From a virus: DNA of 64,000 nucleotides. Within the stretch, counting starts at the first letter, position 1. Each line of letters begins with the position of its first letter. This document shows positions 515-44,952 of the stretch, piece by piece. The translations under genes were made by a program, and so were the position numbers. The stretch lies in the IMG/VR virus record IMGVR_UViG_3300005590_000001, positions 32,001 to 96,000 of that record; one strand, written 5' to 3'. The notes under the pieces were generated by a model that was not told the origin of the DNA, did not search any database, and saw only the letters and a program-made list of their open reading frames with translations.

Positions 515-1402
515 TTAAAATTCCACATAAGGATTAGCAACGGAAATTATATTCGGCATTTTTAGATCATGCCAACAACGAATCATTTGCGGCCGATCAT
601 CAACCACTGCACACACATTGTACTTAGGACTTACAGAAGAAAAGAGCAATTCGGTTTTTATAATCGAGTCTCGGCGATTATCTCCGGCAGCTCTCATGAA
701 TAGATCGCTATACTCAATGTAATTATCTTTTAACCACCGTTCTGTCTCTGATCTTGCGGCCGAATCTCTACCGCTGAGTAATACCACCTGATAATTTCTA
801 GTTATGGCTAATGATGCAACCATATCAATAATAGTATCTCGTGGCTTATCATTGTAAACCTTATCCCACTCAAACGGCTTTCTATTATGCATCTCCGCAA
901 TAGTGCCGTCAATATCACAGATAATACATGATGGCAAATCTTTGTTAGGTTTGTAAAATTTATATCGGCCATCTTCAGACAGATATTTAAGCCACTGTCC
1001 CCATTGCCTATACAAAACTTGAGGACCAACGCCATTTGTCCGCGCCGTATCCCTTTTCTGTGCTTCCTCTAATTTAATGGGAAATTCTTTAATGGATACT
1101 TCGTATCCAAGAGATTGTAGTTTTGAAATCAACGATTTGCGGGAACCACTATGTAAATTAGTATCTGATATGACAATATCTTTTTGTATAACAGAACAAT
1201 GCTCAACTATCTTAAGATTAACGGCTGTAACAAAATTTTCCACAGAAGATTTAAATTTGTAAGTTGACCAATCTTTATGGCCAAACAAAGTAAATCTCAT
1301 ATTATCACGATTAATATTTATCGCACCTGTCTTACGACAATGCTCATCAGCCCATGTGCTTTTTCCAGAAGCACTAATTCCTACTGTCAGTATTGCTTTC
1401 AT
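515..1402 (-). CDS. pseT: polynucleotide 5'-kinase/3'-phosphatase (T4 PseT-like)
   Basis: P-loop GISASGKST, NRD, C-terminal HAD DIDGT ... SGR ... DDR. Confidence 0.92.
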   Translation of the reverse strand: MKAILTVGISASGKSTWADEHCRKTGAININRDNMRFTLFGHKDWSTYKFKSSVENFVTAVNLKIVEHCSVIQKDIVISDTNLHSGSRKSLISKLQSLGYEVSIKEFPIKLEEAQKRDTARTNGVGPQVLYRQWGQWLKYLSEDGRYKFYKPNKDLPSCIICDIDGTIAEMHNRKPFEWDKVYNDKPRDTIIDMVASLAITRNYQVVLLSGRDSAARSETERWLKDNYIEYSDLFMRAAGDNRRDSIIKTELLFSSVSPKYNVCAVVDDRPQMIRCWHDLKMPNIISVANPYVEF

Positions 1403-1814
1403 TTCGTTTACGTTCTTCCATCTTTCTTTTTACACATGTACGAATATCGGCGTTAACCGCTCGTAAATTATTATTTGCTAATTGCATTTTAATAAACGTC
1501 ATATTCTGACGCATATCTCCATACATTTTTTCTGTGGGTACTAACTTCATTAGATTATCAAGAGTTAGCCGTGGAGTAACAAATTCTTGAATCAAGTTAG
1601 ATTGACGCCTTTTCTTGTTATCATTGCCACGTTCAGCATCAATCATTAATTTCTGTGAAAGAATTTTAGCTTGAGTTCTAATATTAACTGTAGTAATCTG
1701 TGATAATGTATTAATATTATCTAAAAGAGATTGATATGCTTGCATAGCTTCAATATTACGAGTGTGTTTTGCTTTATTTAAATTTGAAAATATTTCTTGA
1801 ATTAAAACATTCAT
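1374..1814 (-). CDS. hypothetical protein
   Basis: ORF overlapping neighbours in a tightly packed operon. Confidence 0.6.
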   Translation of the reverse strand: MNVLIQEIFSNLNKAKHTRNIEAMQAYQSLLDNINTLSQITTVNIRTQAKILSQKLMIDAERGNDNKKRRQSNLIQEFVTPRLTLDNLMKLVPTEKMYGDMRQNMTFIKMQLANNNLRAVNADIRTCVKRKMEERKRNESNTDSRN

Positions 1815-2353
1815 TTTATATAACCCTTATTTTTTCGACATCGATCACAGTATGTAAATCTTCGTGCTTTAAGAATATCATCACAATCTTTGCATCTTTT
1901 AATCATTAAATGCATTGTTACACCAGTTGCATCATACATATCACAATTAACCATAAATTGGTGTAACGCATCAGATATCATAGTCGGCGGAATTTCATTC
2001 GCTTCAAATCTATTATTAATAATACCTTTATATTGACCCCAACAGACAATATCAAAACGATCGCTGCCAGCCCTAAATTCAATATGAGGATGATAATATT
2101 TAGACGTGGGTAAAGTTTTAATCTTTCCTAAAAAGATATGCTTACCCCTATAAGTTTGTGACGGAACAATAAATAGATTTACAGTTGTAGGAAAAGTTCT
2201 ACCCTGTATTTCAAATTTGAATGTTTTTCTTTTTGAGAGATTGAAAGAATTTCTACCATCATTAAAAGACCAGCCCTCGTTTAAGAGGGCCTCTATGTCT
2301 TTTTCCCATTTTTTAATTAATTCTTTATGTTCTTTTCGCATTTTTCTTTCCAC
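1811..2353 (-). CDS. E2/UBC-like domain protein with C-terminal Zn ribbon
   Basis: YYHPHI...DIVCWG resembles the E2 HPx...IC[LW] active-site motif; C-terminal CxxC...CxxC; lies next to E1 and JAB. Confidence 0.5.
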   Translation of the reverse strand: MERKMRKEHKELIKKWEKDIEALLNEGWSFNDGRNSFNLSKRKTFKFEIQGRTFPTTVNLFIVPSQTYRGKHIFLGKIKTLPTSKYYHPHIEFRAGSDRFDIVCWGQYKGIINNRFEANEIPPTMISDALHQFMVNCDMYDATGVTMHLMIKRCKDCDDILKARRFTYCDRCRKNKGYIK

Positions 2354-2603
2354 GAAATCTACGTTGGTAATAGGGTCTATCTACCATTACAGAAAATCCT
2401 GCAAAGTTTTGCAACTCAGGCTTCCCATCCCATTTTTCTTTATAAACAGGAGGCCAGTGTAGATTAAAAACTACTTGTAAAGTTCGAACATCATCCAGAT
2501 TTGCTTTCCCCATTTCTAAATGGTTAAGAAAATCAACAAGCCAATCATCATAATCGGCAATAATAGTTGAGTTCTTATCAAATCTAATCTTAATTTTCTT
2601 CAT
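2325..2603 (-). CDS. hypothetical protein
   Basis: ORF coupled to ThiF gene. Confidence 0.55.
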   Translation of the reverse strand: MKKIKIRFDKNSTIIADYDDWLVDFLNHLEMGKANLDDVRTLQVVFNLHWPPVYKEKWDGKPELQNFAGFSVMVDRPYYQRRFRGKKNAKRT

Positions 2604-3286
2604 TACTTCTTACCTTTGTTATCGTCTTCAAATTTAAGTTCTTCAAACAAACCAATCGGCAGATGAATTAGGAAATTCTTAAGAACATAACGGCCCATTA
2701 CGGCAGAAGTAAATTGTGAAACAAGCATAGATGCGGCAATATTTGCTCCATGTTTGATCATGGGGTTATGACAACCACCAGTATTTTGTACAGCTTTATC
2801 ACTATAGAAAGTATTGGCGTAACCTTCTTTTGATTCGTCGTCTACCAAAGCGAAAGTACGAATCTGTTCGCCAGCTACACGACTATCAAAGATAAATTTA
2901 GCCTTGTCTTTATAGAACTTGTAAAGCTTTTCTCTCATACTGAAAGTATCAACACACATGAAGAGAACATCATAAGAATCTTTATGGGGTCGCCACCTAT
3001 CATTGATATGTTTAATTTCAATATTTGGATTAATAGAATGCATTTCTTCCGCAGTACATTCAACTTTAGGTCTACCAATATCGGCAGTTTTATAACCCTG
3101 CGAAGTACAGTTGTGTTCCTCAACTGTATCAAAGTCATAAATTGTAATACTACCAACACCGTTGGCGGCAATTGTGCGTGCGATTTCTCGACCAACAGCC
3201 CCGACACCAACAATTAAAGCTTTAGTTTTGCTAACAATATCTTGATCAATAATTTCAGATTGACGAGAGTAACGATCATCAGACAT
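2603..3286 (-). CDS. ThiF/E1-like ubiquitin-activating adenylyltransferase
   Basis: RYSRQ, GVGAVG, DFDTVEEHN, GRPKVE, CVD; candidate catalytic Cys in GGCH. Confidence 0.9.
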   Translation of the reverse strand: MSDDRYSRQSEIIDQDIVSKTKALIVGVGAVGREIARTIAANGVGSITIYDFDTVEEHNCTSQGYKTADIGRPKVECTAEEMHSINPNIEIKHINDRWRPHKDSYDVLFMCVDTFSMREKLYKFYKDKAKFIFDSRVAGEQIRTFALVDDESKEGYANTFYSDKAVQNTGGCHNPMIKHGANIAASMLVSQFTSAVMGRYVLKNFLIHLPIGLFEELKFEDDNKGKK

Positions 3287-4392
3287 TATACAACTCCTTC
3301 ATAACCAAGTTCTTGAACTTCTTTAATATATTGCTCAAGAGCTTTTTGTAAAAAGTTAGGACGAACTTTATATTTACCACAGATATATGACTGCTTTAAC
3401 GGTGTTAATTCGTTAAAGACACATTTCAAACCACGGTAAACCTCTGGATGATCATCCATAATTATAGAACAATCATGATCATCAAACTTAGATTCAATGT
3501 TTGTCATATTTCTAAACATTCTGACCACTTCATTTTTTGGATGACTATAAAGTGTATCAAAATATTTATAATCAGCTTTATTTAATTGACACTTCTTTTC
3601 GGTAAGAAGACGTAAAGCAATTCGCCGACTGATAATTTCTTTTTTATCCTCAGCTTCTGGAATTGTTGCCCCGTTACTTATTGGGTAATAACCAGCATTA
3701 TGACTGTTAGGTTGATAATGTCCTACAACCCTACCAGTACCAATATTGTGATTGTATTGCTTTTTTCTGACACACTCTTTTAACTCTTTTAACCAATTGT
3801 CATGAAAAGCTTTATATTGTGAGAGAAATGACTCTTCAATATAAGAAATATTATATTGTTGAGCAGCTTCTTCAAGATCAAAAATGTATGAAGTTGGAAC
3901 AATCCAATTACCAACTATTACTTTTGCAGATTCAAGAGTTTGCTTTTGTCCAAGACGAGAGTCATACATAGTACGACAATAGTCTTTATTCTTTTTTGCC
4001 ACAATATACATGCAAGCGAAATCAGCATCCTCTTTAATTTTCTTAAAGTTATCCTCATCTACATTTGAAGGATTGGGAGATTCTCCGGGATGAGTATGAA
4101 TCCAAATACGTGAGAATGTAATAGGGTCCATTTTGTCATCGAACATACGAGCTTCTCGCCAATCAGTATATTCTTTCTCAAGAAATTCTGTATTGCCGCC
4201 GGTACATTCTTGGGGTACACACAAAACATCTACAACTCGGTGTATATCATCCTCACTATTTTTAGAAATTCCCATAAGAGATACTTCTAAAAATGATTCT
4301 GATTTTTCTCCACCACCCTGAACATTTTTTTCAATACAATTATCACGAAAGAATAAAACTTTCGCGAAAGCTTTTTCATCAAAAATAATCAC
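3286..4392 (-). CDS. JAB/MPN+ (JAMM) metalloprotease domain protein with C-terminal extension
   Basis: EVSLMG glutamate plus WIHTHPGESPNPSNVD = HxH-x7-S-x2-D JAMM motif. Confidence 0.85.
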   Translation of the reverse strand: MIIFDEKAFAKVLFFRDNCIEKNVQGGGEKSESFLEVSLMGISKNSEDDIHRVVDVLCVPQECTGGNTEFLEKEYTDWREARMFDDKMDPITFSRIWIHTHPGESPNPSNVDEDNFKKIKEDADFACMYIVAKKNKDYCRTMYDSRLGQKQTLESAKVIVGNWIVPTSYIFDLEEAAQQYNISYIEESFLSQYKAFHDNWLKELKECVRKKQYNHNIGTGRVVGHYQPNSHNAGYYPISNGATIPEAEDKKEIISRRIALRLLTEKKCQLNKADYKYFDTLYSHPKNEVVRMFRNMTNIESKFDDHDCSIIMDDHPEVYRGLKCVFNELTPLKQSYICGKYKVRPNFLQKALEQYIKEVQELGYEGVV

Positions 4393-4394
4393 TA

Positions 4395-5288
4395 TTAGTT
4401 ACCTTTTCGACAACTAGTACAGATGCTTTTCTCCGCACCTTTAGGAGTACGCACACCAACTGTACGTTTTTCACAAGTCTCACACACACTTAAGAAATGA
4501 GACAGATGAGGATATCCTGTGTGCTCATCTATATTCATTCCACTATTCACACATTTTTCACACAACCTAACATTAGATGTTGCACATGCAACAAATTCAT
4601 CTACTGGCCTAAGATCACCACATTCTTGACACTCATAACCAACCCATTTTGCAATTGGAGAATGAGCACCTTCTCGCCGACCAAGATTTTCATCCCCGCC
4701 GTATTTAGTAAGAACTTTTAATACTATATCAAAAGCATCTCCTAAGCGACAATTGGATGCAAATTTTTCGTACATTTTTCTGAAATCACCAAGACATAAA
4801 TTGTATGCTCCATTTACATAGGGATGAAACATACCATCCTTTTCAGTATTGTTTTCAGCTGGAACAACCTTGACGTGATTTTCACCTAAAGTACTGTAAC
4901 CAAAAATCATACTAATATCAAACTTACCGAAGTCAAAACTTTCTCCGGATACTACATCTTCCATAATGATATGTTTAGAACGTACTTTGAACAAGTTAGT
5001 ACGCACGCTTCTAATTCTTGTACAGTTTTCTCTAATGTAATTTAACTGATTTTCAATTTCATCATCAGTTAAAAACATTGATCGGCTTAATACATTTTGG
5101 AGATGATACATAGCATCTCTATTCGGAAGAGATTCTGCTAATATAGATAATGCCCCAATAAGCTCATCCATATTATTAACATCTGGTTTACGAATAGTTG
5201 CGAGTCTATCAAAATCAATTGTTTTAAAATGACGAAATTCGTTTCTATATACAGCTATGTGATCTTTTAAAATATCTTCTACTGCCAT
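4395..5288 (-). CDS. E2/UBC-like domain protein with C-terminal multi-CxxC Zn fingers
   Basis: MFHPYVNGAYNLCLGD matches the E2-type HPxV...xCLG; CQEC, CEKC, CETC, CTSC. Confidence 0.65.
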   Translation of the reverse strand: MAVEDILKDHIAVYRNEFRHFKTIDFDRLATIRKPDVNNMDELIGALSILAESLPNRDAMYHLQNVLSRSMFLTDDEIENQLNYIRENCTRIRSVRTNLFKVRSKHIIMEDVVSGESFDFGKFDISMIFGYSTLGENHVKVVPAENNTEKDGMFHPYVNGAYNLCLGDFRKMYEKFASNCRLGDAFDIVLKVLTKYGGDENLGRREGAHSPIAKWVGYECQECGDLRPVDEFVACATSNVRLCEKCVNSGMNIDEHTGYPHLSHFLSVCETCEKRTVGVRTPKGAEKSICTSCRKGN

Positions 5289-5299
5289 TAGTGAATCCT

Positions 5300-5338
5300 A
5301 AAAAGAAAACAAAGACGGGTATTTGCATACCCGTCTTT
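5300..5338 (-). terminator. intrinsic terminator downstream of Ubl-fusion gene
   Basis: Minus strand AAAGACGGGTAT-GCAA-ATACCCGTCTTT followed by GTTTTCTTTTT. Confidence 0.7.
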
Positions 5339-5355
5339 GAGATACGACAGAAAGA

Positions 5356-5970
5356 CTACTCTGCAGAAGTCTTCCACACATCAGATTTTGCGTCAGGAAC
5401 GCTACAGCCCATTCGAGCACAATAGTGTGATGCATCGCCCTTGAGACCAAGATAAGCGATTGCAGAAAACACATTGTAAACGTCAGGCTTAAGAAGCTGA
5501 GACAGAGCATAATTAGCCTCTGCACGCTGCTTATTCAGATCAGCAAGACGCTTCTCGGTAGCTTCAATCTCTCGGTTGAGAGAGCCAGAATCAGCCCGCA
5601 TCATACCAAGAACCTCAGCAACAACAGTCTTCTGAGCCTTACAAGCGGTTTCAAACTCTTCTTTCAAAACCTCACCGATAACACCGTCATTGATGGCAAG
5701 CTTACCTGCACCAAAATTGACAATGCTTTCGTAAGTCTTCGTTTGAAGAGCATCAACCTCATCAGCACCCTTCATATCACGCTGGGTAACAGTGATGATA
5801 TCACCATTGCCAAGAACCTGATCTTCAGCGGCATCCTGACGATTAACCCGAACAATAGAATTGCTGAAGTTAATACCCTGACCACTAACAAGCTTGCCAA
5901 CAGTCGTACCATCTTCAACATTCAGACCAACAGACGCACCAGTGGCCTTAACCAAGTTTACCCGAATCAT
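5356..5970 (-). CDS. ubiquitin-like (beta-grasp) domain fused via ...MKGA to a helical/coiled-coil domain
   Basis: N-terminal ~69 aa MIRVNLV...VEDGTTVGKL...IVRVN...VLGNGDIITVT..KGA has the ThiS/MoaD/Ubl pattern. Confidence 0.8.
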   Translation of the reverse strand: MIRVNLVKATGASVGLNVEDGTTVGKLVSGQGINFSNSIVRVNRQDAAEDQVLGNGDIITVTQRDMKGADEVDALQTKTYESIVNFGAGKLAINDGVIGEVLKEEFETACKAQKTVVAEVLGMMRADSGSLNREIEATEKRLADLNKQRAEANYALSQLLKPDVYNVFSAIAYLGLKGDASHYCARMGCSVPDAKSDVWKTSAE

Positions 5971-6017
5971 TTTAAACCTCCAATTGGAAAAAGGGGAAAA
6001 CTTAGAACTTACTCAAC

Positions 6018-6626
6018 TCAAGCAAGTTCTTTGCACACATTACAGACTTTGTCTTTTAAAATTACATCGTCGCACATTTCACAACGATTAACTTTAAAAA
6101 ATCTACCAAGTCCGTCTTTGATAGTTGCTTTTTGCAACATATCAATAATAATTTCTACACATAATCCTATATCATGTTTTTTTACAAGAGCATCTCTAAC
6201 ATGATGAGCAACACTACCCAAACACAAAAGAAGTTCTTTGCGGTGTGGATTTTCATGCGACATTTTATAAATGTTATAATGAGAACATCTTTCTTTATTG
6301 TTCGCATAATTAAAATCTATATTACCACCGGTTACAAACATTCCATGACGATGTGCTTGTAAAACTTTTTCAATATCAAAAAAGATTTTAAATTCACCAA
6401 AATTTAATTGTGTTACAGAACAGGTAATATTGCCAGTGTTAAATACAAAACCATAGACATCCTTTTTATATTCATGTCTAAAATAATAATCAATACCTCG
6501 TAATTCATTAATCCGTGTTAAGTGTCTAGCAAGATCATTAATTCTATAACCCGGTATCTTATCAGTTGGAAATCTATATAAGAAATCTTTTTTTGTTACT
6601 TTAATGCTTTCTGTATTAGTTTCCAC
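6018..6626 (-). CDS. E2-like/Zn-ribbon protein (divergent paralogue)
   Basis: NPH...LLLCLGS and C-terminal CEMC...CNVC, same layout as 1811 and 4395 ORFs. Confidence 0.4.
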   Translation of the reverse strand: METNTESIKVTKKDFLYRFPTDKIPGYRINDLARHLTRINELRGIDYYFRHEYKKDVYGFVFNTGNITCSVTQLNFGEFKIFFDIEKVLQAHRHGMFVTGGNIDFNYANNKERCSHYNIYKMSHENPHRKELLLCLGSVAHHVRDALVKKHDIGLCVEIIIDMLQKATIKDGLGRFFKVNRCEMCDDVILKDKVCNVCKELA

Positions 6627-6818
6627 TTGCGAGGCTGACCTTTCTTTTTACCATGTTCATACATCAAACCAGAAAATTTATTACGCATAGAAATAATTGG
6701 CGAAACTCGCGTAGATCCATTATCTACAAAAGGTCTATTAGATTTAGTTTCAGCACACCTTAAATCTCTTTCATCTTTCTGAGTCTTCCACCAAGGAACT
6801 TCAAGAACTTCAATTTCA

Positions 6819-7103
6819 TTACTCATTATCTTCACCACAATTTGCAAGGAAAAATGCACGACCAAGAGCATGTTTCACGCCCTCTTTTTTAATGAACAAT
6901 TCATTAGGTCTACAAAAAGCTTCACCAACAAACTCTTTATCTCCTTTGCGTAAAATTACAGATGTAGAACCACCCTTATTGCTAAGAATTGGTTCTGTTA
7001 AATTATGTGTCTTACCCTTTTGATCAGTAATTCTTTCAATATAATTACGATAATGCCGTACGTATACTGACCATCCAAGTGCACGAACTTCTTCGACTGT
7101 CAT
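6819..7103 (-). CDS. hypothetical phage protein
   Basis: GG.T...GEAFC...F.KKEG...AL.RA pattern common in small phage proteins. Confidence 0.6.
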   Translation of the reverse strand: MTVEEVRALGWSVYVRHYRNYIERITDQKGKTHNLTEPILSNKGGSTSVILRKGDKEFVGEAFCRPNELFIKKEGVKHALGRAFFLANCGEDNE

Positions 7104-7588: not shown

Positions 7589-9226
7589 TTACCAACATCC
7601 TATCCTTTCTCTAATTTCGGCGAGAGTAGTTTCATTCTGAATCTCACCATTACGAAAGACAGTTTGTAATTCATTACCAAGAGCTTCTTCTTCTTGGGTT
7701 ACATCCTCCACCAAATAGTATTTACCGTTAGTATCTTTTCTGACACACAGTAAACCTTTGGCCGACTTTTTAAATCCAGAATGTCCATCGGCACGTTTAT
7801 TTTTATTAGTCTTAGGATCTTTAAAGATGGATATAACTTGATCATTGATCACACAAGATGTGGCCTTACATGCAATGCCGAATGTATCTCGCGTAACATA
7901 CTGATATGTAAAACTGCCGAAGCCAAACACTACATTAGTACTAGCGAACTTTTGTTCAACCAGTCTCGTAATAATATTCTTAGCCTTATCATAATTAATC
8001 GAATCGCCGTAGATAAGTCCAATCTTAGGATTCAATTCTTTGTAACCCTTAGAATTAACGGTACTGCCAAAAATTTCATCAAGCACAGCAACACTACCTA
8101 TTGCTTCTTCTCTTGTAATTTCGCCATTTGCCGTCAGAAATCTACCATCGTCGGTTTGGGCACATTCTATTTGCTCGGAATATGTCATCTCATTCATTTT
8201 ACCAAATTGATAATTTGAATTATGATGTACCCTCGTAATTCTGTAACCGGCAACAATATGTCTAGGATCTCCACTGTCTGGTCTGATTACTAGCTTACCA
8301 TCCCGAGCAAGAATTTCATCTTTGAGCGCAGGTAAAAGTTTAGTTAAAACTCTCCAGTAATCATAGGTATCGCTAACTACTGACAGGATGCCTTTAGGAA
8401 ACCTCTTGAAGAGTTCTTTAAACCATTTTAGTTCGGCATCGTAACGTTCTTCTTCAGAAGTCAAGTTGTTAAAACTTGCCATTCCAATCTGCATAATAGA
8501 ATGTTCAGTTGCCGGAACGCTACCACCGACGAGTTCTTTTTCAATATCGGCACTATAAAATTCTTCTAGGAATTCAATACCGGGAATCGTATCAGTACCA
8601 TAAAAACTTAGAAGATGTGCGGCACCACTAGCACCGGCAGCTTCCATACCAAACAAACCACGCATAGAAAAATCATGACCTTGCCAAGGTACAAAGTTTG
8701 GATCGCCAGTTGCTTCGGCAAATTCATTTAACATTTGTCGAATATGATTAGCAGTAGTAGCTGAAGTCATAGGACCCCAAACAACATTTTGTTCAATGGT
8801 TTCTAAGTATCCCGGCAACCACGGAAAATCTTTATGAGTACTAACCATAGTGGTGAATGGAACTTTAGTCGGACACTTAGATCCTTCTGGCAGTGCTTTA
8901 ATATGGATCGGTAGATAACCAAGTTTGTGTAATTGCCGCAAATTATCAATAGGGTAATCGATTTCTTCTACACCAAGACAATGCTTAAGGATTCTACTAA
9001 ATCTATTGACGGCGTCGTTTTCATCAAGATCGAAGAAGTATTTGTTCCAATAATCTATTAAGTAGTGTTTAATGAAATATTGTAGGCCGAAAACTACAAC
9101 CTCATCTACATTTTCAACTCGCGAATTACGTGCTGTTGTGTTATTGTATACTTTGGTAACTCCATCAGCTACCATTTTAGGATGGAGACACTTATAAAAG
9201 TCTGCCGCACTAAGAGCGCTTTTCAT
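7589..9226 (-). CDS. nadV: nicotinamide phosphoribosyltransferase family (Nampt/Namat-like)
   Basis: DFYK, HDFSMRG, GTDT, PATEHS, SVVSDTYD, IRPDSGDP, GDSI, KKSAKG. Confidence 0.93.
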   Translation of the reverse strand: MKSALSAADFYKCLHPKMVADGVTKVYNNTTARNSRVENVDEVVVFGLQYFIKHYLIDYWNKYFFDLDENDAVNRFSRILKHCLGVEEIDYPIDNLRQLHKLGYLPIHIKALPEGSKCPTKVPFTTMVSTHKDFPWLPGYLETIEQNVVWGPMTSATTANHIRQMLNEFAEATGDPNFVPWQGHDFSMRGLFGMEAAGASGAAHLLSFYGTDTIPGIEFLEEFYSADIEKELVGGSVPATEHSIMQIGMASFNNLTSEEERYDAELKWFKELFKRFPKGILSVVSDTYDYWRVLTKLLPALKDEILARDGKLVIRPDSGDPRHIVAGYRITRVHHNSNYQFGKMNEMTYSEQIECAQTDDGRFLTANGEITREEAIGSVAVLDEIFGSTVNSKGYKELNPKIGLIYGDSINYDKAKNIITRLVEQKFASTNVVFGFGSFTYQYVTRDTFGIACKATSCVINDQVISIFKDPKTNKNKRADGHSGFKKSAKGLLCVRKDTNGKYYLVEDVTQEEEALGNELQTVFRNGEIQNETTLAEIRERIGCW

Positions 9227-9485
9227 TCTTTGACCTCTCTTCTAAATCAAGTTGACCAAGAGTGTGACCTAAAGCTGTAACGGTCATAAAAATTGTAAAT
9301 AGTAAAAATAGATTTGTTAAAGATGCATAAATAACATATGACCAAAAAGTTAAATCAGAAAATGCTAATTTACATAATAGTGCAATGTTTGCAAAGACAC
9401 CAACCAAAGAAAGAATAAACGATAAAATGCCAACTAAAACCATTACTATGTTAAATGTATCACTATACTTTTTAATTTCTACCAT
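9210..9485 (-). CDS. membrane protein
   Basis: two hydrophobic segments. Confidence 0.55.
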   Translation of the reverse strand: MVEIKKYSDTFNIVMVLVGILSFILSLVGVFANIALLCKLAFSDLTFWSYVIYASLTNLFLLFTIFMTVTALGHTLGQLDLEERSKNEKRS

Positions 9486-10378
9486 GTTAAAAACTCACTT
9501 ATGTGGATTGCATTAACTCCAACTTGATTTAATGATGTCAAAACTTGATGATCATCATCTACTACGGTTACGTCTCGTTTGTCCAACTTCCTCGAACGAA
9601 TGATAGAAAGCGCTTCCACATATTTATAACGTTTATTACCAACGAAGAAACGATTTTCTTTAGGAATAAAAGGGGCGTGCTTATCAAGCCACTCCTCTTT
9701 TTCTCGTAAACTTTGGCTATTAGGCATGGCAGAAAGAATGTAAACGTTATCACGATTAAGAATGCGGTCCAAAACTGGTTGAACGGGTCTAGCATACTTA
9801 AAATATTCCCCATCTGTAAAATTAATGTTGCCGTTTTCATCTAACGGCATGTGTTGATATGCCGCAAGCGTACCATCCATATCAAAGAAGATATGTTTGT
9901 TGGTATAGTATGGAACGTCAACGACATCATCACAGTATTCAAGTAATCTGTGGTAGCAACGATTTTTAATAATTGCTTTCTTAATAATCGCCGATTCAGG
10001 TACTGTTCTTTCTCGCTGCTTATTTCGTTCTAAGCAAACTGCAAGTGGCGTGTCAATATTAACAAGTACAATTTGATACTCACCGATCTGATCAACTTCA
10101 CTCATCAATCTCGCATTATACTTATTATTGATACCACCACCGTCAAAGAATATTGTACTATATTTTAATGATTTAGCGGCGTTTATAAGCTGTTGTTCTG
10201 CTCTTTCTACACTTAATTGATGTAGAGCTTCGGGAAATGCTGGATTATATAAAGGGTTTTGTTTTTTGATTTCATCAGCGGATATAATAATTGGGTCGAA
10301 AAAATTATCTAACCTATTTTGTATCCAAGTTGTTTTACCGGCACCCGGCAAACCGAACATAAAGTAAACGGTTCTCAT
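9479..10378 (-). CDS. AAA_33-type kinase fused to HAD 5'(3')-nucleotidase domain
   Basis: GLPGAGKTT; FFDMDGTL...ILSA...VDDD. Confidence 0.8.
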   Translation of the reverse strand: MRTVYFMFGLPGAGKTTWIQNRLDNFFDPIIISADEIKKQNPLYNPAFPEALHQLSVERAEQQLINAAKSLKYSTIFFDGGGINNKYNARLMSEVDQIGEYQIVLVNIDTPLAVCLERNKQRERTVPESAIIKKAIIKNRCYHRLLEYCDDVVDVPYYTNKHIFFDMDGTLAAYQHMPLDENGNINFTDGEYFKYARPVQPVLDRILNRDNVYILSAMPNSQSLREKEEWLDKHAPFIPKENRFFVGNKRYKYVEALSIIRSRKLDKRDVTVVDDDHQVLTSLNQVGVNAIHISEFLTW

Positions 10379-11172
10379 TTTGAGTACTCCAAACCTTTTC
10401 TACTATAAATATTTGTAATACCAGATTCGTATAGAGTATCTACACCCTTAGAAAGTATCAAGTGTGAGCAATATAAATCTACACATTTGGGTTTGGTATT
10501 CTTATGTATTGCTTCGGCCGCGAGCTTAAATGTCATACCGCCGTCGCAAATATCATCTACTATTAGACATCTTTGCCCTTGTAAGTCTTTAAATTTACTT
10601 CTTGCTAAGGGTTCAGACATGGTAATATAGCCAGTTTCAGGATCTCGTTGTTTAAGTAAAACAAAATCCTTGTTTGTTCGTAAAATATATCTTTTTGCGG
10701 CAGATTCGTCTGGATAAATTGTGTAATCATATTTATATTGTTTAATAATTCTACGAATAATATGATCGGGTGATTGAACAGTAATGAAACCCTCAAGTAC
10801 ATCATGCCAACAGTGTAAATCAAAGCATATAATTTTATTTACATAATTACGCATTAAACCTACAAAAGTAAATAATGCAAATGTATTATTGTTATTTATT
10901 GATTTGTCTTGTCTGGCATAAGGTAAGTATGGAGCATGTAATGTAATTACTAAATCTGGACAATATGATCTGAGCAAGTCGCAAAGCTGACAAATATGAA
11001 AGATTTCTGATTCATTTTCAAATTGCCAATCAATTTTTACATGTTTATCGGCAACAATTTGTAAACACATTTCTGCAGAAAGATGCCAAACTTGACTAGT
11101 TTTGTCGGGAAAAACGGTGGGTTGAATGACATGACTGTCAATACTAATCATCTTTTTTATCCTGTTGAACAA
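10375..11172 (-). CDS. prs: ribose-phosphate pyrophosphokinase family (Prs/Adps-like)
   Basis: FPD, PYLPYARQD, DLH, LIVDDICDGGMTF PRTase motif. Confidence 0.9.
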   Translation of the reverse strand: MFNRIKKMISIDSHVIQPTVFPDKTSQVWHLSAEMCLQIVADKHVKIDWQFENESEIFHICQLCDLLRSYCPDLVITLHAPYLPYARQDKSINNNNTFALFTFVGLMRNYVNKIICFDLHCWHDVLEGFITVQSPDHIIRRIIKQYKYDYTIYPDESAAKRYILRTNKDFVLLKQRDPETGYITMSEPLARSKFKDLQGQRCLIVDDICDGGMTFKLAAEAIHKNTKPKCVDLYCSHLILSKGVDTLYESGITNIYSRKGLEYSK

Positions 11173-11365
11173 GTATAGAACTTACAAAAAGCATACCAAC
11201 TAACAATGTTATATTAATCGCAATCAAAGCTGGGATAACAATATCTTTTTCCATACCCATATCTTGAATTAGATAGTGTTGACCAACAACGCTTCCAGCC
11301 ATAGCTAAAATTGATGATCCAAAACAAAACAATACGATTAAAGCTTTCATTATTTTATGCATCAT
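11144..11365 (-). CDS. small membrane protein
   Basis: two hydrophobic helices. Confidence 0.5.
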   Translation of the reverse strand: MMHKIMKALIVLFCFGSSILAMAGSVVGQHYLIQDMGMEKDIVIPALIAINITLLVGMLFVSSILVQQDKKDD

Positions 11366-11609
11366 ATATCCTTTTAAGGCTAAAAATTATTAAACACAAT
11401 ATTAAAATACAATCTATTATCGGCCAAGCTAGTAAGTGTACTGAAGTAGCCATAAAACAAAACGGTCCATCATCCTCATTATTTCTATTACATTCAAGCC
11501 AATGCCACATTGGAACACATTTATATAACCGCCAGTAACCAAAAATGTAAATTAGATGTAATATAACACCGGTTAGATGTATAAAGGCGATATACTGATA
11601 ATAATTCAT
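11355..11609 (-). CDS. small membrane protein
   Basis: two hydrophobic helices. Confidence 0.5.
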   Translation of the reverse strand: MNYYQYIAFIHLTGVILHLIYIFGYWRLYKCVPMWHWLECNRNNEDDGPFCFMATSVHLLAWPIIDCILILCLIIFSLKRIYDA

Positions 11610-11621
11610 TAAGTTATATCC

Positions 11622-11765
11622 TTAAATTGCATTACGACACTCTTGCATACAAAAGACACAACAATCGCATAATGATAGATGATCATCTTCTATTTCTTCG
11701 CGATAAGGACATGTATGCAATTCTAGATTTTCATTTTGACATGATTCATTGTCTTCACAAGACAT
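11622..11765 (-). CDS. small Cys-rich protein (47 aa)
   Basis: Manual translation MSCEDNESCQNENLELHTCPYREEIEDDHLSLCDCCVFCMQECRNAI; GGGGAG RBS upstream. Confidence 0.6.
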   Translation of the reverse strand: MSCEDNESCQNENLELHTCPYREEIEDDHLSLCDCCVFCMQECRNAI

Positions 11766-11798
11766 TTAGATTCTCCCCCTTAAATTAACTACTCATAA

Positions 11799-11824
11799 TA
11801 GCCGAGGTCGGATTCGAACCGACA
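11799..11824 (-). pseudogene. orphan tRNA 3' fragment (T arm + acceptor strand)
   Basis: GTCGG-TTCGAAT-CCGAC-CTCGGCT-A with no 5' half. Confidence 0.6.
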
Positions 11825-11829
11825 AGGAT

Positions 11830-11904
11830 TGACACTGGAGAGATTCGAACTCTCAACTCACTGCTTCTAAGGCAGCGTCCTCTTGCCTATTGGGATACAG
11901 TGCC
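11830..11904 (-). tRNA. trnL: tRNA-Leu(UAG), short variable loop, no encoded CCA
   Basis: GGCACTG/CAGTGTC acceptor, GCTGC-CTTAGAA-GCAGT anticodon arm, GAGAG-TTCGAAT-CTCTC T arm. Confidence 0.85.
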
Positions 11905-11981
11905 GTTTATAAACTTTTTTTAATTAATTATGGTATACATGCGTAATATATTATATACACATTTACCATAAGGAATTAATT

Positions 11982-12647
11982 ATGAAATATACAAAAGAAT
12001 TATTAGAACCAATTGTTCGAGAATGCACATCTATAAGACAAGTTTTACAGAGACTAGGACTCAAAGAAACTGGCGGAAATTATTCAAATATTGGAAAAAG
12101 AATAGATAAACATGGTATTGATCGATCTCATTTTACTGGACAGGGACATATGAAGGGTAAAAAAGCATTAAATAGAAAATCAACTAAATATTACTTAGAT
12201 AATAAAGCTCATATACACTCCAATGCATTACGTTTACGATTACTTAACGAAGGATATTTCGAACACCAATGCCAAGGATGTGGTGCAAAAGAGTGGAGGG
12301 GTGATTCTATACCTCTAGAATTACACCATATTGATTGTAACCATCACAATAATAGCTTAGATAACTTAATGATTTTATGCCCAAATTGTCACAAATATGA
12401 ACATGATCAATTAAAAAAGAAATCTAAAAACCCTAAACATAAAAAAAAATGTAAAGACTGCACTGAGCAAATAAGAAAAGAGTCGTTGAGATGTAGATCA
12501 TGTGCGTCAAAATTACGACCGACTAAAATTAATTGGCCAGATACCAAATCTTTAAAGAAAATGGTATCTGAAACCAATTATTCTGTAGTTGCAAGATCTT
12601 TAAAAGTTTCTGATAACGCAATTAGAAAACGATTGAGAAATCATTAA
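11982..12647 (+). CDS. HNH homing-type endonuclease (antisense to surrounding genes)
   Basis: CQGC...LELHHID.NHHNN.LDNL.ILCPNCH; C-terminal HTH VSDNAIRK. Confidence 0.88.
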   Translation: MKYTKELLEPIVRECTSIRQVLQRLGLKETGGNYSNIGKRIDKHGIDRSHFTGQGHMKGKKALNRKSTKYYLDNKAHIHSNALRLRLLNEGYFEHQCQGCGAKEWRGDSIPLELHHIDCNHHNNSLDNLMILCPNCHKYEHDQLKKKSKNPKHKKKCKDCTEQIRKESLRCRSCASKLRPTKINWPDTKSLKKMVSETNYSVVARSLKVSDNAIRKRLRNH

Positions 12648-37545: not shown

Positions 37546-38947
37546 GGACTTTTTCCCGTTTGTTGTATTGATTGGCGATATTCTGTGCCTGATCACGACT
37601 CAATCCATAATCAGTAAATTTGCCGGTTATGGTATCTTTGACACAGAAGTAAACATGACTTGCTGGTTCAGGAATCGCTTTGTATCGACGCATAATCACC
37701 CTTCATAAGTCCATCTCCGGTAAATCCAAAGTGTTGACACAAACATGCGTGTCAAATTCCGACACAAATATGGCACCACGCTCAGACTGAGACAAATAAT
37801 CTTTATTCGCTCGATGGCACACAAGACAATGACTTGTGTGATGTGACAATTCTGCACCACATGTGCATTGAAATCGCCGACAATCGACACAAGTCGATTC
37901 AAGACTCAATGGTACTCCACACCTTATGCATTCTGGCACGACTATACCCCTTCTTAGCCTCTTCTTCTTTGATCCATTTGATGATCAACTCACACATTTC
38001 CTGCCGAGTTATTTTGCCGTCCATCAAATCCACAAGCGTAGACAATTGGATCGGAATCATTGTCCCACCGAACTTTTCCAGTCCAGCATCTGTTATTTGC
38101 TTGTATGCTGACACAATGTTCTCCCTTTGTAAGTCAGGTGACACAACATTCGCCGATAATGTGTCAGTTGAATATCCGCCGAACTACAATCCTATCTGTA
38201 CTTCTTCAGAGACTCGTATAAAGTCCCAGTTTAAGTTCTGACAGGCTTCGTAGGCAGATTGAGGGTTCCAACCGTGCTGAATTAAAACCTCTTCTGCGAC
38301 AATCTGAGGGACCTGAAACGGTCTCCAAACTTTGCAATTTTCAGCCTCATTGAGAGTCAGCAAAAGATAGAGGGTCATTCAGAAATTCCCGTGTTTTATG
38401 CCGTGAGCGACCTTTTGAGCTAGACCAACCATAAGCAATTGTAGTGCTCAAATCAATGAACTCATAAGAGCTAATAAAGCCCTCTATCCATTCATCAAAC
38501 ACAACAAGAAACTCCTAAAAGAAAGACATTAAGCACACTCTGTATAGTGTTGTGTTAAGGGGTGGATTTTGCTTTGTTCTGTGAAAAACTCCACACTCAC
38601 ACCAAAAAACCCCCAAAAACAGGCGTTTTTTCGCAACTTTTGCCTCAAACTCAATCACTTTTGCACGATTTTATTTGGTCAAAAGGCGACAAAGGTGCGG
38701 CCACAAAAACACGGGGCTTTTTGACATTTTGTCATTTCGACAAGAAAATTCCCCAAGAGGGTAGTCAAAATTTCCCCGGGGGGTGGTCTCAACTGAAAAT
38801 CAAAAACACGGGAGTTTTGCACGAAAATGTACTTGGCCTCACTTGGCCTCACAACGGTCGGACTTAGAACGTAAAAATTCTTAATCCTACCCTATCCGTT
38901 ATCCCGTTTGCTTTGCGGACTTCTGTTGTTTGCAGAAGCCCCGTCGT

Positions 38948-39319
38948 TCAGATTTCTTCGATCTGCTTTCGCAGTCGTTGGTAACGAGCTTTCGACATCG
39001 GCCGACTTCCCCACCTCGAAATACTTTCGGCAGTCTTACGAAAGAACCGCAGAATTTCTTCTGATCGGATGTATTCGGATTCGAACATTCCCTGAGCAGC
39101 AGACAGGTCCGCCTGAATATCAACATCTTCCATGAAGCGTTCACGCATTTGCCCAATGCGATTCAATTCTCGATTAGCATCCGACTTCCGCCGATAAATC
39201 CTCAAGATCACATCCCCCGGATTCTCACCGAAAACTTCCAGAAAAACACAAGCTTCCTGTTCCGTATCAGATTTCCGGATGATGCTTTCCAGAGTATGCA
39301 ACTGCATTTGATTCTCCAA
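38948..39319 (-). CDS. hypothetical protein
   Basis: ORF; internal GGAG precedes the second Met (MQLH), the probable true start. Confidence 0.55.
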   Translation of the reverse strand: MENQMQLHTLESIIRKSDTEQEACVFLEVFGENPGDVILRIYRRKSDANRELNRIGQMRERFMEDVDIQADLSAAQGMFESEYIRSEEILRFFRKTAESISRWGSRPMSKARYQRLRKQIEEI

Positions 39320-39358
39320 AACTGAACGAATGTGAAGTTTAACACGAGCGAATGCGAG

Positions 39359-39431
39359 TCAGCCATGCTGGATTCGAACCAGACCTACCCAATAAACGGT
39401 GGGCAATGCTACCAATTACACCACAGGCTGA
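39359..39431 (-). pseudogene. degenerate tRNA-like element
   Basis: GGTGTAATTGGTAGCAT D arm and CTGG-TTCGAAT-CCAG T arm, but bulged acceptor and 8-nt anticodon loop. Confidence 0.5.
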
Positions 39432-40422
39432 TTACGGCAGGGAAAAATTCGTCCCAACCACTGCCGTAGAACAAACGGGACTACCCCTGAATTACAGGAG
39501 AAAAGAACAGACGGCGGAAATCCAGAAGTTAGTGTCCACTGAACCCATATATGTTTTTAGATTCCGAGTGGCTATTGTAGGATTTCGGCTATCTTGCCGA
39601 TAGAAACGGCGACTGATCCCAATCAATCAGAACGCGGGAATGTTGGATATCGCTGGACTCACCCGTAGGCTTTTGAGGATTCCCGAATTACTTCGCCGTG
39701 ATACTGTCTAATCAATACTCGGCCGAATATTGACACAGCACAAAAGTCGGCAAATCGCCGACAAACAAAATCGAACCGAGCCATTACCAAATGAGCCATT
39801 ATAGCCGATTCTAGTATAGTCGGAACATTCTCAAACTGATATCAATCTGAGAAGTCCTCTAGAATACTGACTGAGTAGGGAATCGAACCCTCAACTCGGT
39901 TCTTTCCAAAATCGCCGAACAAAAATTCTTGCAGTATTGCCGCAATAGCTTTTATCGGCGAAATCCCAAGGTGCAAGACTATCAGCATCAACCAACAAAA
40001 TGCACCTTATGCCTTACCACTGATCCAAACAGGGATCACTTATCGGCTATCCGCCAATGTTATGCAACCGGAATGCCAGTCTCAAAATGATGACTGCAAT
40101 TCGGATTGTCGCAAGTGACTTCGCAATTCAAGCACAGTTTGTTTGCTGCACCTAATTGCATCGGTCGCTGAATCGAGTGTAATTCTGCCGATCCAGCCGC
40201 CGATTCTCTGTCAACAACCTCTTGAGCGTCAGTTGAATTATTGAACGGACCCCACAATGTTGCACTACCATTAGCATTAACAACTGTGACGAACCAATCT
40301 CTATTCAAATGACTATCCAACATGAAACACTCCTCAGAAACACAGCTTGCGAATGTCCGCCGATTGTTCTCTTTTCATGTAAATCCCGCCCGGCAAATGC
40401 CGGGCGGAATCCCAGACAACGC

Positions 40423-41058
40423 CTAGCTGTCGTCTTCGTCTTCGCCGAAATCGCCGAAGTCGAAATCGCCCATGACTTCGCCTGCGAGATTCGGTGCCCG
40501 CTTGCTGCGAAGATTGGTGTACTTCTTGACATTCTGTCGCAAAGCTACGGCAGCCTGTTCGTACAGATCCTCAGTGATATCGGTGAAACCAATATCCCGC
40601 AGACCCTCAACAGGATGAGCCACACGATCTTCGCCATCAAACGAATACTTGATGGAACTGGCGTCCTTTTCCATCGCGTTTCGAACTACCGTGTTCACGC
40701 CGCTTGTTCCGCGACCATCCACGATTCCGCCGAAGAACTTACGGCAGACCCCTTCGTAGATCTGATTCCGAGCGAATTCCAACGCACGATTCCACTGATC
40801 GCGGAAGATGTTACGTGGAATACCACCCAAACGCTTGTCCGGCAGCTTGCCATCCCAGCCGATCATTCGGCAGGCAACTTTCGGATTGGTCTCTCCGTTG
40901 ACCAGACAAAACGACGCAAAGTGCTGAAGCACGTATGCGTTAAACACTGGCGGGTCAACCGTTTCGTAATCACGAACACCCGGCTTTTCCCGCATTGCAG
41001 CAATGGAATTTTCCAAAGCTGCCGCGTACCATTCCTCAGTCTGTTTCGACACAGCCAT
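40423..41058 (-). CDS. hypothetical protein with acidic tail
   Basis: GAGGAG RBS; hairpin after stop. Confidence 0.7.
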   Translation of the reverse strand: MAVSKQTEEWYAAALENSIAAMREKPGVRDYETVDPPVFNAYVLQHFASFCLVNGETNPKVACRMIGWDGKLPDKRLGGIPRNIFRDQWNRALEFARNQIYEGVCRKFFGGIVDGRGTSGVNTVVRNAMEKDASSIKYSFDGEDRVAHPVEGLRDIGFTDITEDLYEQAAVALRQNVKKYTNLRSKRAPNLAGEVMGDFDFGDFGEDEDDS

Positions 41059-41607
41059 GAGAAAATCTCCTCAAAATGAGGTGAACAAAACTGTCCGACT
41101 ACTACGATTCGCCGAACAAAAATTCAGACAGAATGTCTTCGGTAATCGTACGATCACTCCTGACTTTCCGCCGTTTCTGTTTCCATGACAATCCCATTGA
41201 GGAACCATCAGAAAACCAATCCGTTACTTCGTCACCGAAGAACACTTTTGGAATGACCGTGCCATTCCATGCCGCGAACCGGACACACAAACGACCGTTC
41301 TCACGAAACAGGTCAGCAATCGCACACTTTTCGTGACTTTTGCCGTTAGATTCAACGATTGTGAACCGCCGGTTTTCCGCTTTTCGCGGGATTTTTAACC
41401 GTTTTCGCACCGTTTTCTCCGTTTTGTTGTCGTTGTCGTTGTTTGTGGTTGTCTCTGTCGCCACCCTATAAGCTATGGAGGGCACGTTGTCCGGTTTTTC
41501 TGGCAGGATTTGACGCTGTAATTTTGAACACTGTACAAACGTTGTGCGGACACTTGAAAGGTGTACAGTGTACAAGCGTAAGGTGTGCAAATGTGAGGTG
41601 TACAGAG

Positions 41608-43616: not shown

Positions 43617-43675
43617 GCACGTTAGAATCTGTGCCCACGGGCAGCCCGATTGCTGCCCGTTCTTACTTTTGAGAA

Positions 43676-44116
43676 TCAGCGTCGTTTGCGGCGTACTATT
43701 CTTTTGCAATCACACTTGCGTGCGGCGGCAAGAGCGGTTTTCTTGTCGATTCCCATTTCTTGCAATTCTTTTGCTTTGTCGAGAATCGACTGCATTCTGT
43801 ATTGGAATTCTTGTCTAGCTGGCGGGATATTCGTGCCATGATAATTAACCTTAATTTCATTTCCCGCTGGATACAACGATGCACCTTCTGGAACTCCCAG
43901 ATATGAGAATTCTCCATTGTGACGGAATGGTCTGTATCGTTGACGATCCTGTGCGAGATTCGGAAAGATTCCGAAAATCGTATATGTGTTTCGCTCATCT
44001 GACAGCAGATCACCAGCGTGAGACGCTGTGTATATTACGCGTTTGACGCCTTCGCGGTCTTTGAAGACGAAAACGAAATCGTACTTATGGTGACGGTAAT
44101 TTGCAGGAAACAACAT
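43676..44116 (-). CDS. hypothetical protein
   Basis: AGGAG RBS. Confidence 0.6.
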   Translation of the reverse strand: MLFPANYRHHKYDFVFVFKDREGVKRVIYTASHAGDLLSDERNTYTIFGIFPNLAQDRQRYRPFRHNGEFSYLGVPEGASLYPAGNEIKVNYHGTNIPPARQEFQYRMQSILDKAKELQEMGIDKKTALAAARKCDCKRIVRRKRR

Positions 44117-44475
44117 TATTCAAACTCCTAAAACAGAGAAGGGAAACCACCCGCAGGATCCTGCGGGTGGTGGTCGTCAAGTCTTACAATCTTTCGATTG
44201 AGTGTATTACTTCATGCGGATCTGGATTTGATTCTGCCTTTCCGCGACACTGGATACAAACGTCCAGAATAGCATGGTCGAAAACTTTACCATCCTGCTG
44301 ACTGACTCCGGAAAAACAGACCCGGTATTTTTTCGGGCAGAGATTACAAACGTGGCATTTTCCCGGATACATCCGGTCAAGATAATTCAGAATTGCATCG
44401 TTTGATAGCATTTCGTCACCTTCAGTTGAATGAAGACCACCCGCGGGACGTCCCGCGGGTGGTGGTCGCCAGATT

Positions 44476-44952
44476 CTACAGTTTCTCGATTGCGATCTCT
44501 GCCAAATTGGCATACGGATTGCCAATCCACAACTGAATGCCAGCATGCTTCGCTGTCAGCAGAGCCTGTTCATGCGTGAATTCACGCTCTTCGATTCCCC
44601 CGTTTTCCACAATTTGGACCACGATTTTCCCGTTAATGGGAAATACCATAATTCGCCGATTTTCATCGGCGACGATTCCGAAGCGATTGTCCCATCGTGA
44701 AAAGTGGGTGATTGCATACGGCGCAGCCTTGTCTTGATCCCTCAGTTCAAGATATCCCTTGGCGGTGATTTCGTTCAACTTTTCCTTGACACCATTGACA
44801 GCCATCGGACGACCAGTCTTGTCGTTGGGAAAAAATGTTCCCATTGTCCGCATTGCGGGTGGCTTTCCGTTCTCGAAAACGAATTTGCAGTAAACGTCCA
44901 AGAATCGCGCCTGTCGTTCCGTAAGTTTGTTTTCCGTTGCCTTGCGTTTCAT
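44476..44952 (-). CDS. LexA-like N-terminal DNA-binding domain protein lacking an obvious S24 peptidase
   Basis: LTERQARFL.......NGKPPAMR.MG......V...L..I..KGYL. Confidence 0.7.
   Translation of the reverse strand: MKRKATENKLTERQARFLDVYCKFVFENGKPPAMRTMGTFFPNDKTGRPMAVNGVKEKLNEITAKGYLELRDQDKAAPYAITHFSRWDNRFGIVADENRRIMVFPINGKIVVQIVENGGIEEREFTHEQALLTAKHAGIQLWIGNPYANLAEIAIEKL

Follow-up and report, generated by a model that had tools for sequence, protein, structure and literature searches.

The 64,000-nucleotide stretch of viral DNA analysed here (the window; bases 32001-96000 of the 171,987-bp IMG/VR virus record IMGVR_UViG_3300005590_000001) contains a cassette of seven minus-strand genes, here named orfA to orfG, which probably encodes a working tagging cascade of the type formed by an activating enzyme (E1), a conjugating enzyme (E2) and a deubiquitinase, carried by a phage and expressed with its non-structural genes. 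The cassette comprises genes for a predicted ubiquitin-like protein (Ubl) precursor (orfB), a candidate E2 with a zinc-finger array (orfC; E2-Zn), a JAB peptidase (orfD), a minimal E1 (orfE), two accessory E2-like proteins (orfA and orfG) and a small open reading frame (ORF; orfF) (Table 1). The predicted catalytic motifs of the set are C172 of the E1, C165 of the E2, the JAMM site of the peptidase and the G68-A69 end of the Ubl. An earlier note on this DNA had described an apparently complete Ubl conjugation set, and the folds, the catalytic motifs, the synteny and the lack of sulfur-transfer partners all agree with that reading; its seven co-oriented ORFs were all found with the same ends, on the minus strand and closely packed or overlapping. 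What the analysis establishes is the gene set, the folds, the catalytic residues and the conserved synteny; cleavage, thioester formation, conjugation, targets and role are inferred.

Since the record is complete, with direct terminal repeats (completeness rating 100%) and genes for terminase, portal and tail proteins, the cassette can be assigned to the phage itself and is part of a genuine, complete phage genome. Also encoded in the record are five tRNAs, a tRNA nucleotidyltransferase, NAMPT and a polynucleotide kinase. The G+C content of the cassette (0.34-0.385) is like that of its surroundings.

The orfC product is modelled as an E2 with a UBC fold. Its AlphaFold2 model had a predicted local distance difference test score (pLDDT) of 87.6 and a predicted template modelling score of 0.80, and the best 24 Foldseek rows obtained with it were all E2 enzymes (probability 0.5-0.98). 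VIA-align comparison with E2s gave Z-scores of 6.1-7.4, with a root-mean-square deviation (rmsd) of 3.5-4.3 A over 108-129 aligned residues, and the first 18 rows of a Foldseek-independent search of 48,161 representative chains were also E2s (Z 5.5-6.6). E2s thus came first in three structure searches, as expected from the earlier suggestion that this ORF is E2-like. UEV and RWD folds, the UBC domain of UBE2O and crystal constructs of E2-RING fusions were found as well among its structural neighbours.

Word-based protein searches with orfC retrieved only orfC itself, with orfA two proteins and with orfG one, and scans of IMG/VR for close relatives with orfC or orfD as single proteins found none. 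An exhaustive HMMER search retrieved 133 orfC relatives among 1.84 billion representatives. In an alignment of 65 of them, H155, P156, C165, G167 and the Cys pairs were invariant. The motif reads H155-P156-Y...C165-L-G167 in orfC and HP[HY]-x8-C-x-G in the family, with a distance of 10 residues from HPx to the Cys, as for HPN...C in canonical E2s. Pfam UQ_con was matched by three of the 65 relatives (best E 1.3e-4), and in an hhalign comparison the HPH/HPY...C165 of the family fell on the HPN...Cys of a Pfam-confirmed UQ_con Planctomycete E2. The UBC call was made because of the uniform E2 rows, the HPx-Cys spacing, the three UQ_con relatives and this motif match.

The C-terminal ~80 residues of orfC contain four conserved CxxC pairs; relatives have four or more, and bacterial ones carry up to ten. 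Profile searches with this part matched FYVE (1.8e-4), the CesA RING-type finger (9e-4) and PHD and RING fingers (0.02-0.2), and Pfam zf_RING-like was scored at 14.3 bits against a cut-off of 27. These matches point to a treble-clef array with two zinc sites, akin to RING, FYVE and PHD fingers, and therefore a module like those of ubiquitin ligases (E3) may be built into the protein.

The E1 candidate, orfE, matched Pfam ThiF with an E-value of 6.7e-30 (104.4 bits, cut-off 28.1), and its best sequence matches in the PDB were ubiquitin E1 adenylation domains and MoeB. Residues R8, Q9, G27-x-G29-x-x-G32, D51, K74, D113 and C172 were invariant across six phage and bacterial homologues. C172 lies ~59 residues past the Mg-binding Asp, which we take to be the position of the crossover-loop Cys of MoeB and ThiF. 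The protein consists of one 227-residue domain, without UFD, Cys domain or zinc motif. Under current annotation the E1s of this family appear as 'thiamine biosynthesis protein', because the family has no curated model.

For orfB, the AlphaFold2 model (26 homologues) showed a beta-grasp domain joined by a floppy linker to a long helix (64 residues) and a small, likewise helical end. Residues 1-63 had a beta-beta-alpha-beta-beta layout with pLDDT values of 95-98, which fell to 53-63 at residues 70-100 and rose to 91-97 at residues 110-200. Foldseek returned 91 PDB matches at E<=1e-3, and the top rows among those listed were SUMO, NEDD8 and ubiquitin (probability 1.00, template modelling score 0.6-0.68 on the target, rmsd ~2.6 A), so that the part called a Ubl in the earlier note does model as a beta-grasp fold. 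The sequence profile matched SAMP2 (1.3e-3) and PF1061, and also ThiS-like proteins.

G68 was the sole invariant column across the 26 Ubl homologues, and the next residue was mostly Ala. Many stand-alone homologues terminate at ...GA or bear 1-12 further residues. The ~135-residue tail of orfB is kept at 31-35% identity in four related contigs (L003, L004, L006 and L010) and is absent from the remaining viral and bacterial Ubls. A G-A end with tails of varying length behind it (0-135 residues) looks like the signature of a processed Ubl precursor. Residues 1-69 of orfB are thus modelled as a beta-grasp domain with a conserved small-residue C-terminus, the processing itself being predicted.

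A full JAMM zinc site (E36 with H99-T-H101-x7-S109-x2-D112) is present in orfD and was invariant in six homologues. The protein scored under the Pfam Prok-JAB gathering threshold (16.6 bits, cut-off 25); PADLOC JAB models matched it down to 1e-6, and its profile matched Rpn11 (1.4e-4) and AMSH. From about residue 160 onwards, the extension of ~200 residues aligned only with the L003, L004 and L006 proteins, and by these alignments appears to be specific to this phage clade.

Among orfA, orfC and orfG, no significant pairwise BLASTP similarity was found. Comparison of orfA with the E2-Zn family profile by hhalign gave an E-value of 1.1e-4, with the C-x-G and the first CxxC in register, and orfG matched the family with 84% probability (E 7.6e-6) and was picked up in the phage genome by the hidden Markov model of the E2-Zn family alignment A2 (E 0.0023). 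When orfA and orfG were aligned with their own homologues (A6) and compared with A2, hhalign gave 96% probability and an E-value of 2.1e-9 over 155 columns that include the C-x-G and the first zinc knuckle. The C-x-G was invariant in six of six accessory E2-like proteins. The homologues of orfA were one 48%-identical protein and an ORF of L004 (771-1316; E 2.7e-12), while another L004 ORF (4819-5352) sits after the E1 like orfG and has matching motifs, so that L004 is arranged like the window, with one E2 paralogue on the upstream side and another following the E1. Further E2 copies are present in L003, L004, L010, L026 and L034. Judging from the profiles, orfA and orfG would be remote homologues of the core E2 that retain the Cys, and not close paralogues. 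The three E2-like zinc ORFs of the earlier note hold up in part: orfC has the UBC fold, and orfA and orfG are E2 homologues, but remote ones, with no BLASTP link.

The cassette could operate as follows. The Ubl would be made as a 204-residue precursor, and a hairpin after its gene could raise Ubl dosage relative to the enzymes. The JAB peptidase would cut at K67-G68-A69, giving a beta-grasp tag of 68 or 69 residues and a helical fragment of 135 residues. The minimal E1, presumed to be a MoeB-like homodimer, would adenylate the freshly exposed C-terminus, perhaps forming a thioester on C172, and the tag would move to C165 of the UBC-fold E2. The zinc-finger array of orfC might serve as a built-in E3 or substrate adaptor, with transfer to target lysines, while orfA and orfG could provide alternative target specificities or cofactors, and JAB would also reverse the mark. 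Since the cassette sits among genes of nicotinamide adenine dinucleotide (NAD) salvage and RNA repair, host proteins were judged the most likely targets, either in takeover or in counter-defence.

Locus scans were seeded with the E1 alignment, A2 being too divergent as a seed. The order Ubl, E2-Zn, JAB and E1 was found in all 27 IMG/VR contigs retrieved via the E1 (18-191 kb, with 27-54% E1 identity) and in three more phage-like contigs, L003, L004 and L006. The search of phage databases for conserved synteny that the earlier note had proposed thus yielded the same order in more than 30 viral contigs. A quick, midpoint-rooted E1 tree with several long branches, which is indicative only, clustered the window E1 with those of L003, L004, L006 and L010 (Shimodaira-Hasegawa-like approximate likelihood ratio support of 100), low-GC contigs that have the Ubl tail and the JAB extension in common with the window. 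In the same midpoint-rooted tree, several viral lineages fell outside the Planctomycete group.

A related E1 is encoded at 407 or more (at least 407) bacterial loci in species-representative genomes. The best 80 of these loci were nearly all from Planctomycetota; the four-gene order was complete in 40 of the 80, and most of the others were interrupted by contig ends. Each of five Planctomycete genomes that were checked had two to six copies of the E2-Zn gene, and bacterial cassettes adjoin tyrosine or serine recombinases and insertion sequence (IS) elements. The cassette is therefore not a singleton and belongs to a large uncurated family found in diverse uncultured phages and as multi-copy integrative cassettes in Planctomycetota.

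The chromosome of Planctomicrobium sp. SH527 (G002) contains six dispersed E2-Zn copies. Four of them were compared (L120-L123, ~8300-12500 of each locus) and had 90-96% nucleotide identity over ~4 kb. The repeat is composed of the cassette and ~1.5 kb upstream, and its end often coincides exactly with the E1 stop. In one pair the repeat runs through a tyrosine recombinase gene, and IS (rve) elements adjoin. The SH527 cassette has the look of a small mobile unit, integrative or of another kind.

Upstream of the Ubl gene, three plus-strand ORF families recur in 24-26 of the 80 Planctomycete loci (L037-L116). They lie ~1-4 kb before the E2-Zn gene, measure ~320, ~130 and ~100 codons from stop to stop and had no Pfam match; the bacterial cassettes may include them as further components. 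Variants were also seen among the viral relatives. In L034 (3-7726), three E2-Zn genes stand in tandem ahead of a JAB-containing open frame of 1337 codons, and in L011/L012 (2345-7651) and L027/L029 the E2-Zn genes have 724-804 codons, the JAB genes 480-660 codons, and the Ubl genes differing long extensions.

Analogous co-oriented blocks were observed in the cultured Flavobacterium phage FpV4 (L118, KT876724.1; 1104-5115) and in the uncultured crAss-like phage cr85_1 (L119, MT774390.1, annotated against phiCrAss001; 1499-5214). The N-terminus of the first protein ends in ...K-S-G-G or ...K-S-G-A before a long tail. It is followed by a 371-420-aa protein with Y-M-H-S-H...C-[IL]-G, by a JAB with HxHx7SxxD annotated as 'metalloprotease', and by a ThiF annotated as 'thiamine biosynthesis protein'. 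Against the profiles of the window family, the E1s alone were significant (3e-30 and 8e-27); the other proteins were not (E 0.057-0.65), though their motifs line up, and any link to FpV4 and the crAss-like phage beyond the E1 is a lead.

Several points weigh against reading the cassette as a working cascade. The structural Z-scores of orfC are middling (6-7.4, rmsd ~4 A), the protein has no match to Pfam UQ_con (PF00179) at E<=0.1, and the third motif position in its family is Tyr or His, in place of the oxyanion Asn of canonical E2s. Its zinc array fits RING, FYVE, PHD or tandem zinc ribbons, and the length of the array varies among relatives. The E1 lacks a UFD or Cys domain of the kind that recruits E2s, orfA is tied to the E2 family by profile-profile comparison only, and the targets and the role are guesses from the neighbourhood.

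The chemistry could be unchanged and its use different: as a Bil-type weapon on a mobile element, the cassette would tag proteins of competing phages or other elements, in a form of superinfection exclusion. Those bacterial Ubl cascades that have been characterised, Bil and type II CBASS, do act against phages, with a phage tail protein as a Bil target (PMC10557695, PMC11601603); relatives of the cassette in bacteria are, moreover, multi-copy and placed by recombinases and IS elements, as is typical of accessory conflict systems. However, the phage cassette is surrounded by genes of the takeover or counter-defence type, with no moron or lysogeny module to be recognised there, many large viral contigs of apparently lytic type retain it, and its PADLOC matches are limited to generic E1 and JAB models. 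We regard this use as unlikely. As to the role, the neighbourhood suggests host takeover or counter-defence, whereas defence-like competition is suggested by the Bil precedent and by the mobility and copy number of the relatives in bacteria.

Two other explanations would remove conjugation altogether, and both seem very improbable to us. The Ubl and E1 could form a sulfur-carrier or other non-conjugating adenylation system like ThiS, MoaD or TtuB, for example in tRNA or nucleotide thiolation, with the Cys/Zn proteins in sulfur relay or RNA binding. Such a system would suit the minimal ThiF/MoeB-type orfE, whose best NCBIfam rows, each falling far short of the cut-off, were for ThiF and MoeB, as well as the Ubl profile matches to SAMP2 and ThiS-like proteins and the investment of the phage in tRNA (five tRNA genes and the tRNA nucleotidyltransferase). 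Yet searches of all 171,987 bp of the phage record found no PP-loop ATPase, cysteine desulfurase or rhodanese, activities that the host might provide, and the earlier statement that sulfur-transfer genes are not nearby extends in this way from the neighbours (polynucleotide kinase, phosphoesterase and NAMPT) to the entire genome. The partner protein orfC carries the E2 motif on a UBC fold, not on a sulfurtransferase fold, and JAB together with Ubl precursors bearing variable tails suits conjugation and processing. The other explanation is a regulatory or assembly module that works non-covalently, in which the E2-like proteins bind Ubl but do not catalyse, as in the UEV/RWD type, or in which orfB keeps its Ubl unreleased. 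Lambdoid and T1-like phages do have a Ubl-fusion protein and a JAB peptidase as partners, with no E1 or E2 beside them (PMC1779556), UEV and RWD folds are among the structural neighbours of orfC, and the orfB tail is conserved and well folded. Nevertheless, the Cys of C-x-G, which is missing from inactive UEV/RWD proteins, does not vary among the 65 core relatives or the six accessory proteins, the set is never without an E1 that looks active, and most Ubls of the family are free-standing, with few residues past the G-A.

If the cassette is a conjugation cascade, as we prefer, a wider proposal can be put forward with reserve, which we consider possible but doubtful. Phages would be the main reservoir of the cascade, the E2-E3 hybrid and the two alternative E2s would tag host proteins (for example, defence or translation factors) during infection, the 135-residue fragment would be a second effector, and the Planctomycete cassettes would be domesticated or selfish viral derivatives.

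In 2011, Burroughs, Iyer and Aravind reportedly predicted prokaryotic operons of E1, E2, RING, JAB and Ubl genes (cited in PMC10557695). This type is the nearest described kind. The window cassette likewise appears to have the five activities in one operon, is of a family with most of its bacterial relatives in the same phylum, and combines a putative treble-clef zinc module with the E2, whose HPH/HPY...C165 aligns with HPN...C. In contrast to such operons, the zinc module is fused to the E2 and not a separate Prok-RING protein, the window proteins all miss Pfam UQ_con, Prok-RING and YukD, the cassette is phage-borne, the Ubl is ThiS/SAMP2-like with a G-A end, and the E1 has 227 aa as against 331 aa. 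A locus in a metagenome-assembled genome of Pirellulaceae (L117, G004:C3; 1394-5753) encodes a YukD-like Ubl, a UQ_con E2 (50.7 bits), ThiF, JAB and Prok-RING_1, adjoins a GNAT acetyltransferase gene and lies in a genome that also holds an E2-Zn cassette; unlike in the window, its E2, RING and YukD-type Ubl are separate proteins recognisable by Pfam.

The BilABCD system (PMC10557695, PMC11601596) has in common with the cassette the order Ubl, E2, JAB and E1, the E1 and E2 as separate proteins, and a Ubl precursor trimmed by JAB, which in the window cassette is predicted. It differs in that BilB has no zinc-finger fusion, no significant sequence link was found, and the owner here is a phage and not its host. 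Membership of Bil was rejected, since Bil is defined by a multidomain E1 and orfE is a single 227-aa adenylation domain. In Bub systems (6E / DUF6527), the E2 (BubB) is diverged and the E1 is linked or fused to a peptidase of the CEHH type (PMC11601596, PMC10557695); orfE matched Citrobacter BubCD over the adenylation domain only (1.3e-5), BubB appeared at row 24 of the orfC fold search (Z 5.2), and membership was rejected as the peptidase of the cassette is a JAB and not of the CEHH type. Type II CBASS Cap2/Cap3, which is characterised by an E2-E1 fusion that works on a CD-NTase, was rejected as well, as E1 and E2 are separate genes here (no CD-NTase search was made); PADLOC E1-E2 models matched the E1 part only (3.7e-14), and Cap3 scored 16.4 bits against a cut-off of 200. 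For the PRTRC cassette (TIGR03735-03742), TIGR03736 scored 26.7 bits against a cut-off of 144.75 and the other PRTRC models had no match, and this candidate was also rejected.

A minimal MoeB-like E1, a ThiS/MoaD-like Ubl and a JAMM peptidase also make up archaeal SAMP/UbaA/HvJAMM1 and Thermus TtuB/TtuC. The SAMP and TtuB systems, however, have no E2 and double as sulfur carriers, whereas the cassette family always has a UBC-fold Cys protein. UBE2O, BIRC6 and engineered E2-RING fusions may resemble orfC in that a single polypeptide joins a UBC domain to a module of the substrate- or E2-activating kind; homology to them is limited to the UBC fold, and the zinc array of orfC is short and variable in number. 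Tail-assembly protein I and the JAB-containing protein K of lambdoid and T1 phages are similar in that a phage Ubl is fused to a C-terminal domain and has a JAB partner, and the JAB of K is predicted to cut after the terminal Gly of the Ubl (PMC1779556). The I/K module is found within tail-assembly genes, whereas the window cassette is in a non-structural region and has full activation machinery.

Searches of the literature retrieved no description of a phage-encoded E1/E2/JAB/Ubl set, in line with the earlier statement that no characterised phage system is known to have this layout; the family may be mentioned in Burroughs 2009, Burroughs 2011 or Ledvina 2023. Planctomycetes were not mentioned in Iyer 2006. 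The cassette is unusual in its E2-zinc-finger fusion, its three E2-type genes, its Ubl precursor with a conserved cargo-like tail and its location in a phage. Bacterial Ubl conjugation has come under experimental study recently, mainly as an anti-phage weapon (Bil and type II CBASS), and if a phage runs a complete cascade of its own, phages and bacteria would be using one chemistry against each other. As a candidate for an E3-containing prokaryotic cascade to work with, the cassette is also compact, its E1 having 227 aa, its E2-zinc-finger hybrid 297 aa and its tag 69 aa. The family is large (>=407 bacterial loci with a related E1; >30 viral contigs with the cassette) and lacks a curated model, and its E2 bears on the first joining of E2 and RING-like modules.

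Table 1. Features of the cassette and adjoining ORF in the window (functions are predicted).
Feature	Position	Strand	Description
orfA	6018..6626	-	202 aa, putative accessory E2-like protein; conserved Cys L-C135-L-G; one C-terminal CxxC...CxxC zinc ribbon
orfB	5356..5970	-	204 aa, predicted Ubl precursor (Ubl domain + C-terminal tail)
Ubl domain of orfB (residues 1-69)	5764..5970	-	predicted beta-grasp, end K67-G68-A69
orfB tail (residues 70-204)	5356..5763	-	flexible linker, 64-residue helix, small helical end (conserved motif G-C-x-V-P...W-x-T-S)
Terminator-like hairpin	5310..5339	-	13-bp stem, 6 G-C pairs, T-rich tail; directly 3' of Ubl gene
orfC	4395..5288	-	297 aa, predicted core E2: UBC fold ~73-217, zinc-finger array ~218-297
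orfD	3286..4392	-	368 aa, JAB/JAMM metallopeptidase ~1-160 + ~200-residue C-terminal extension
orfE	2603..3286	-	227 aa, minimal single-domain E1, ThiF/MoeB type
orfF	2325..2603	-	92 aa, no known family; start overlaps E1 stop
orfG	1811..2353	-	180 aa, putative accessory E2-like protein; H-P-H...V-C104-W-G; one CxxC...CxxC zinc ribbon
orfH	1374..1814	-	146 aa; overlaps orfG stop; cassette membership uncertain

Pfam, PHROGs, PADLOC and NCBIfam returned only chance-level rows for orfA, orfC, orfF, orfG and orfH. The small ORF mentioned in the earlier note is orfF, which is kept directly after the E1 in the contigs L003 (E 3.5e-8) and L006 (E 6e-6), a position that suggests that it belongs to the system; no Pfam, PHROG, PADLOC, NCBIfam or Atlas lead was obtained for it. 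No homologue of orfH was found in the related loci. The hairpin after the Ubl gene is assigned a putative function from its stem length and position, the region having five terminator-like sites where 4.5 were expected from shuffles. Nucleotide searches of 50,697 phage records, by blastn with window bases 1400-7000 and by tblastn with orfC, returned no match.

The NAMPT gene (window 7589-9226) is located upstream of the cassette, and a NAMPT gene is found 1-3 kb upstream both here and in the distant contig L003 (3508-5118; 44% identity). In L003 a homing-endonuclease gene (HNH/NUMOD) is inserted beside NAMPT. The G+C content of the window is mostly 0.31-0.38 and reaches 0.45-0.50 at 38-48 kb (38000-48000) and 0.48-0.57 at 60-64 kb (60000-64000), where the tail genes start, a large compositional jump inside one phage genome.

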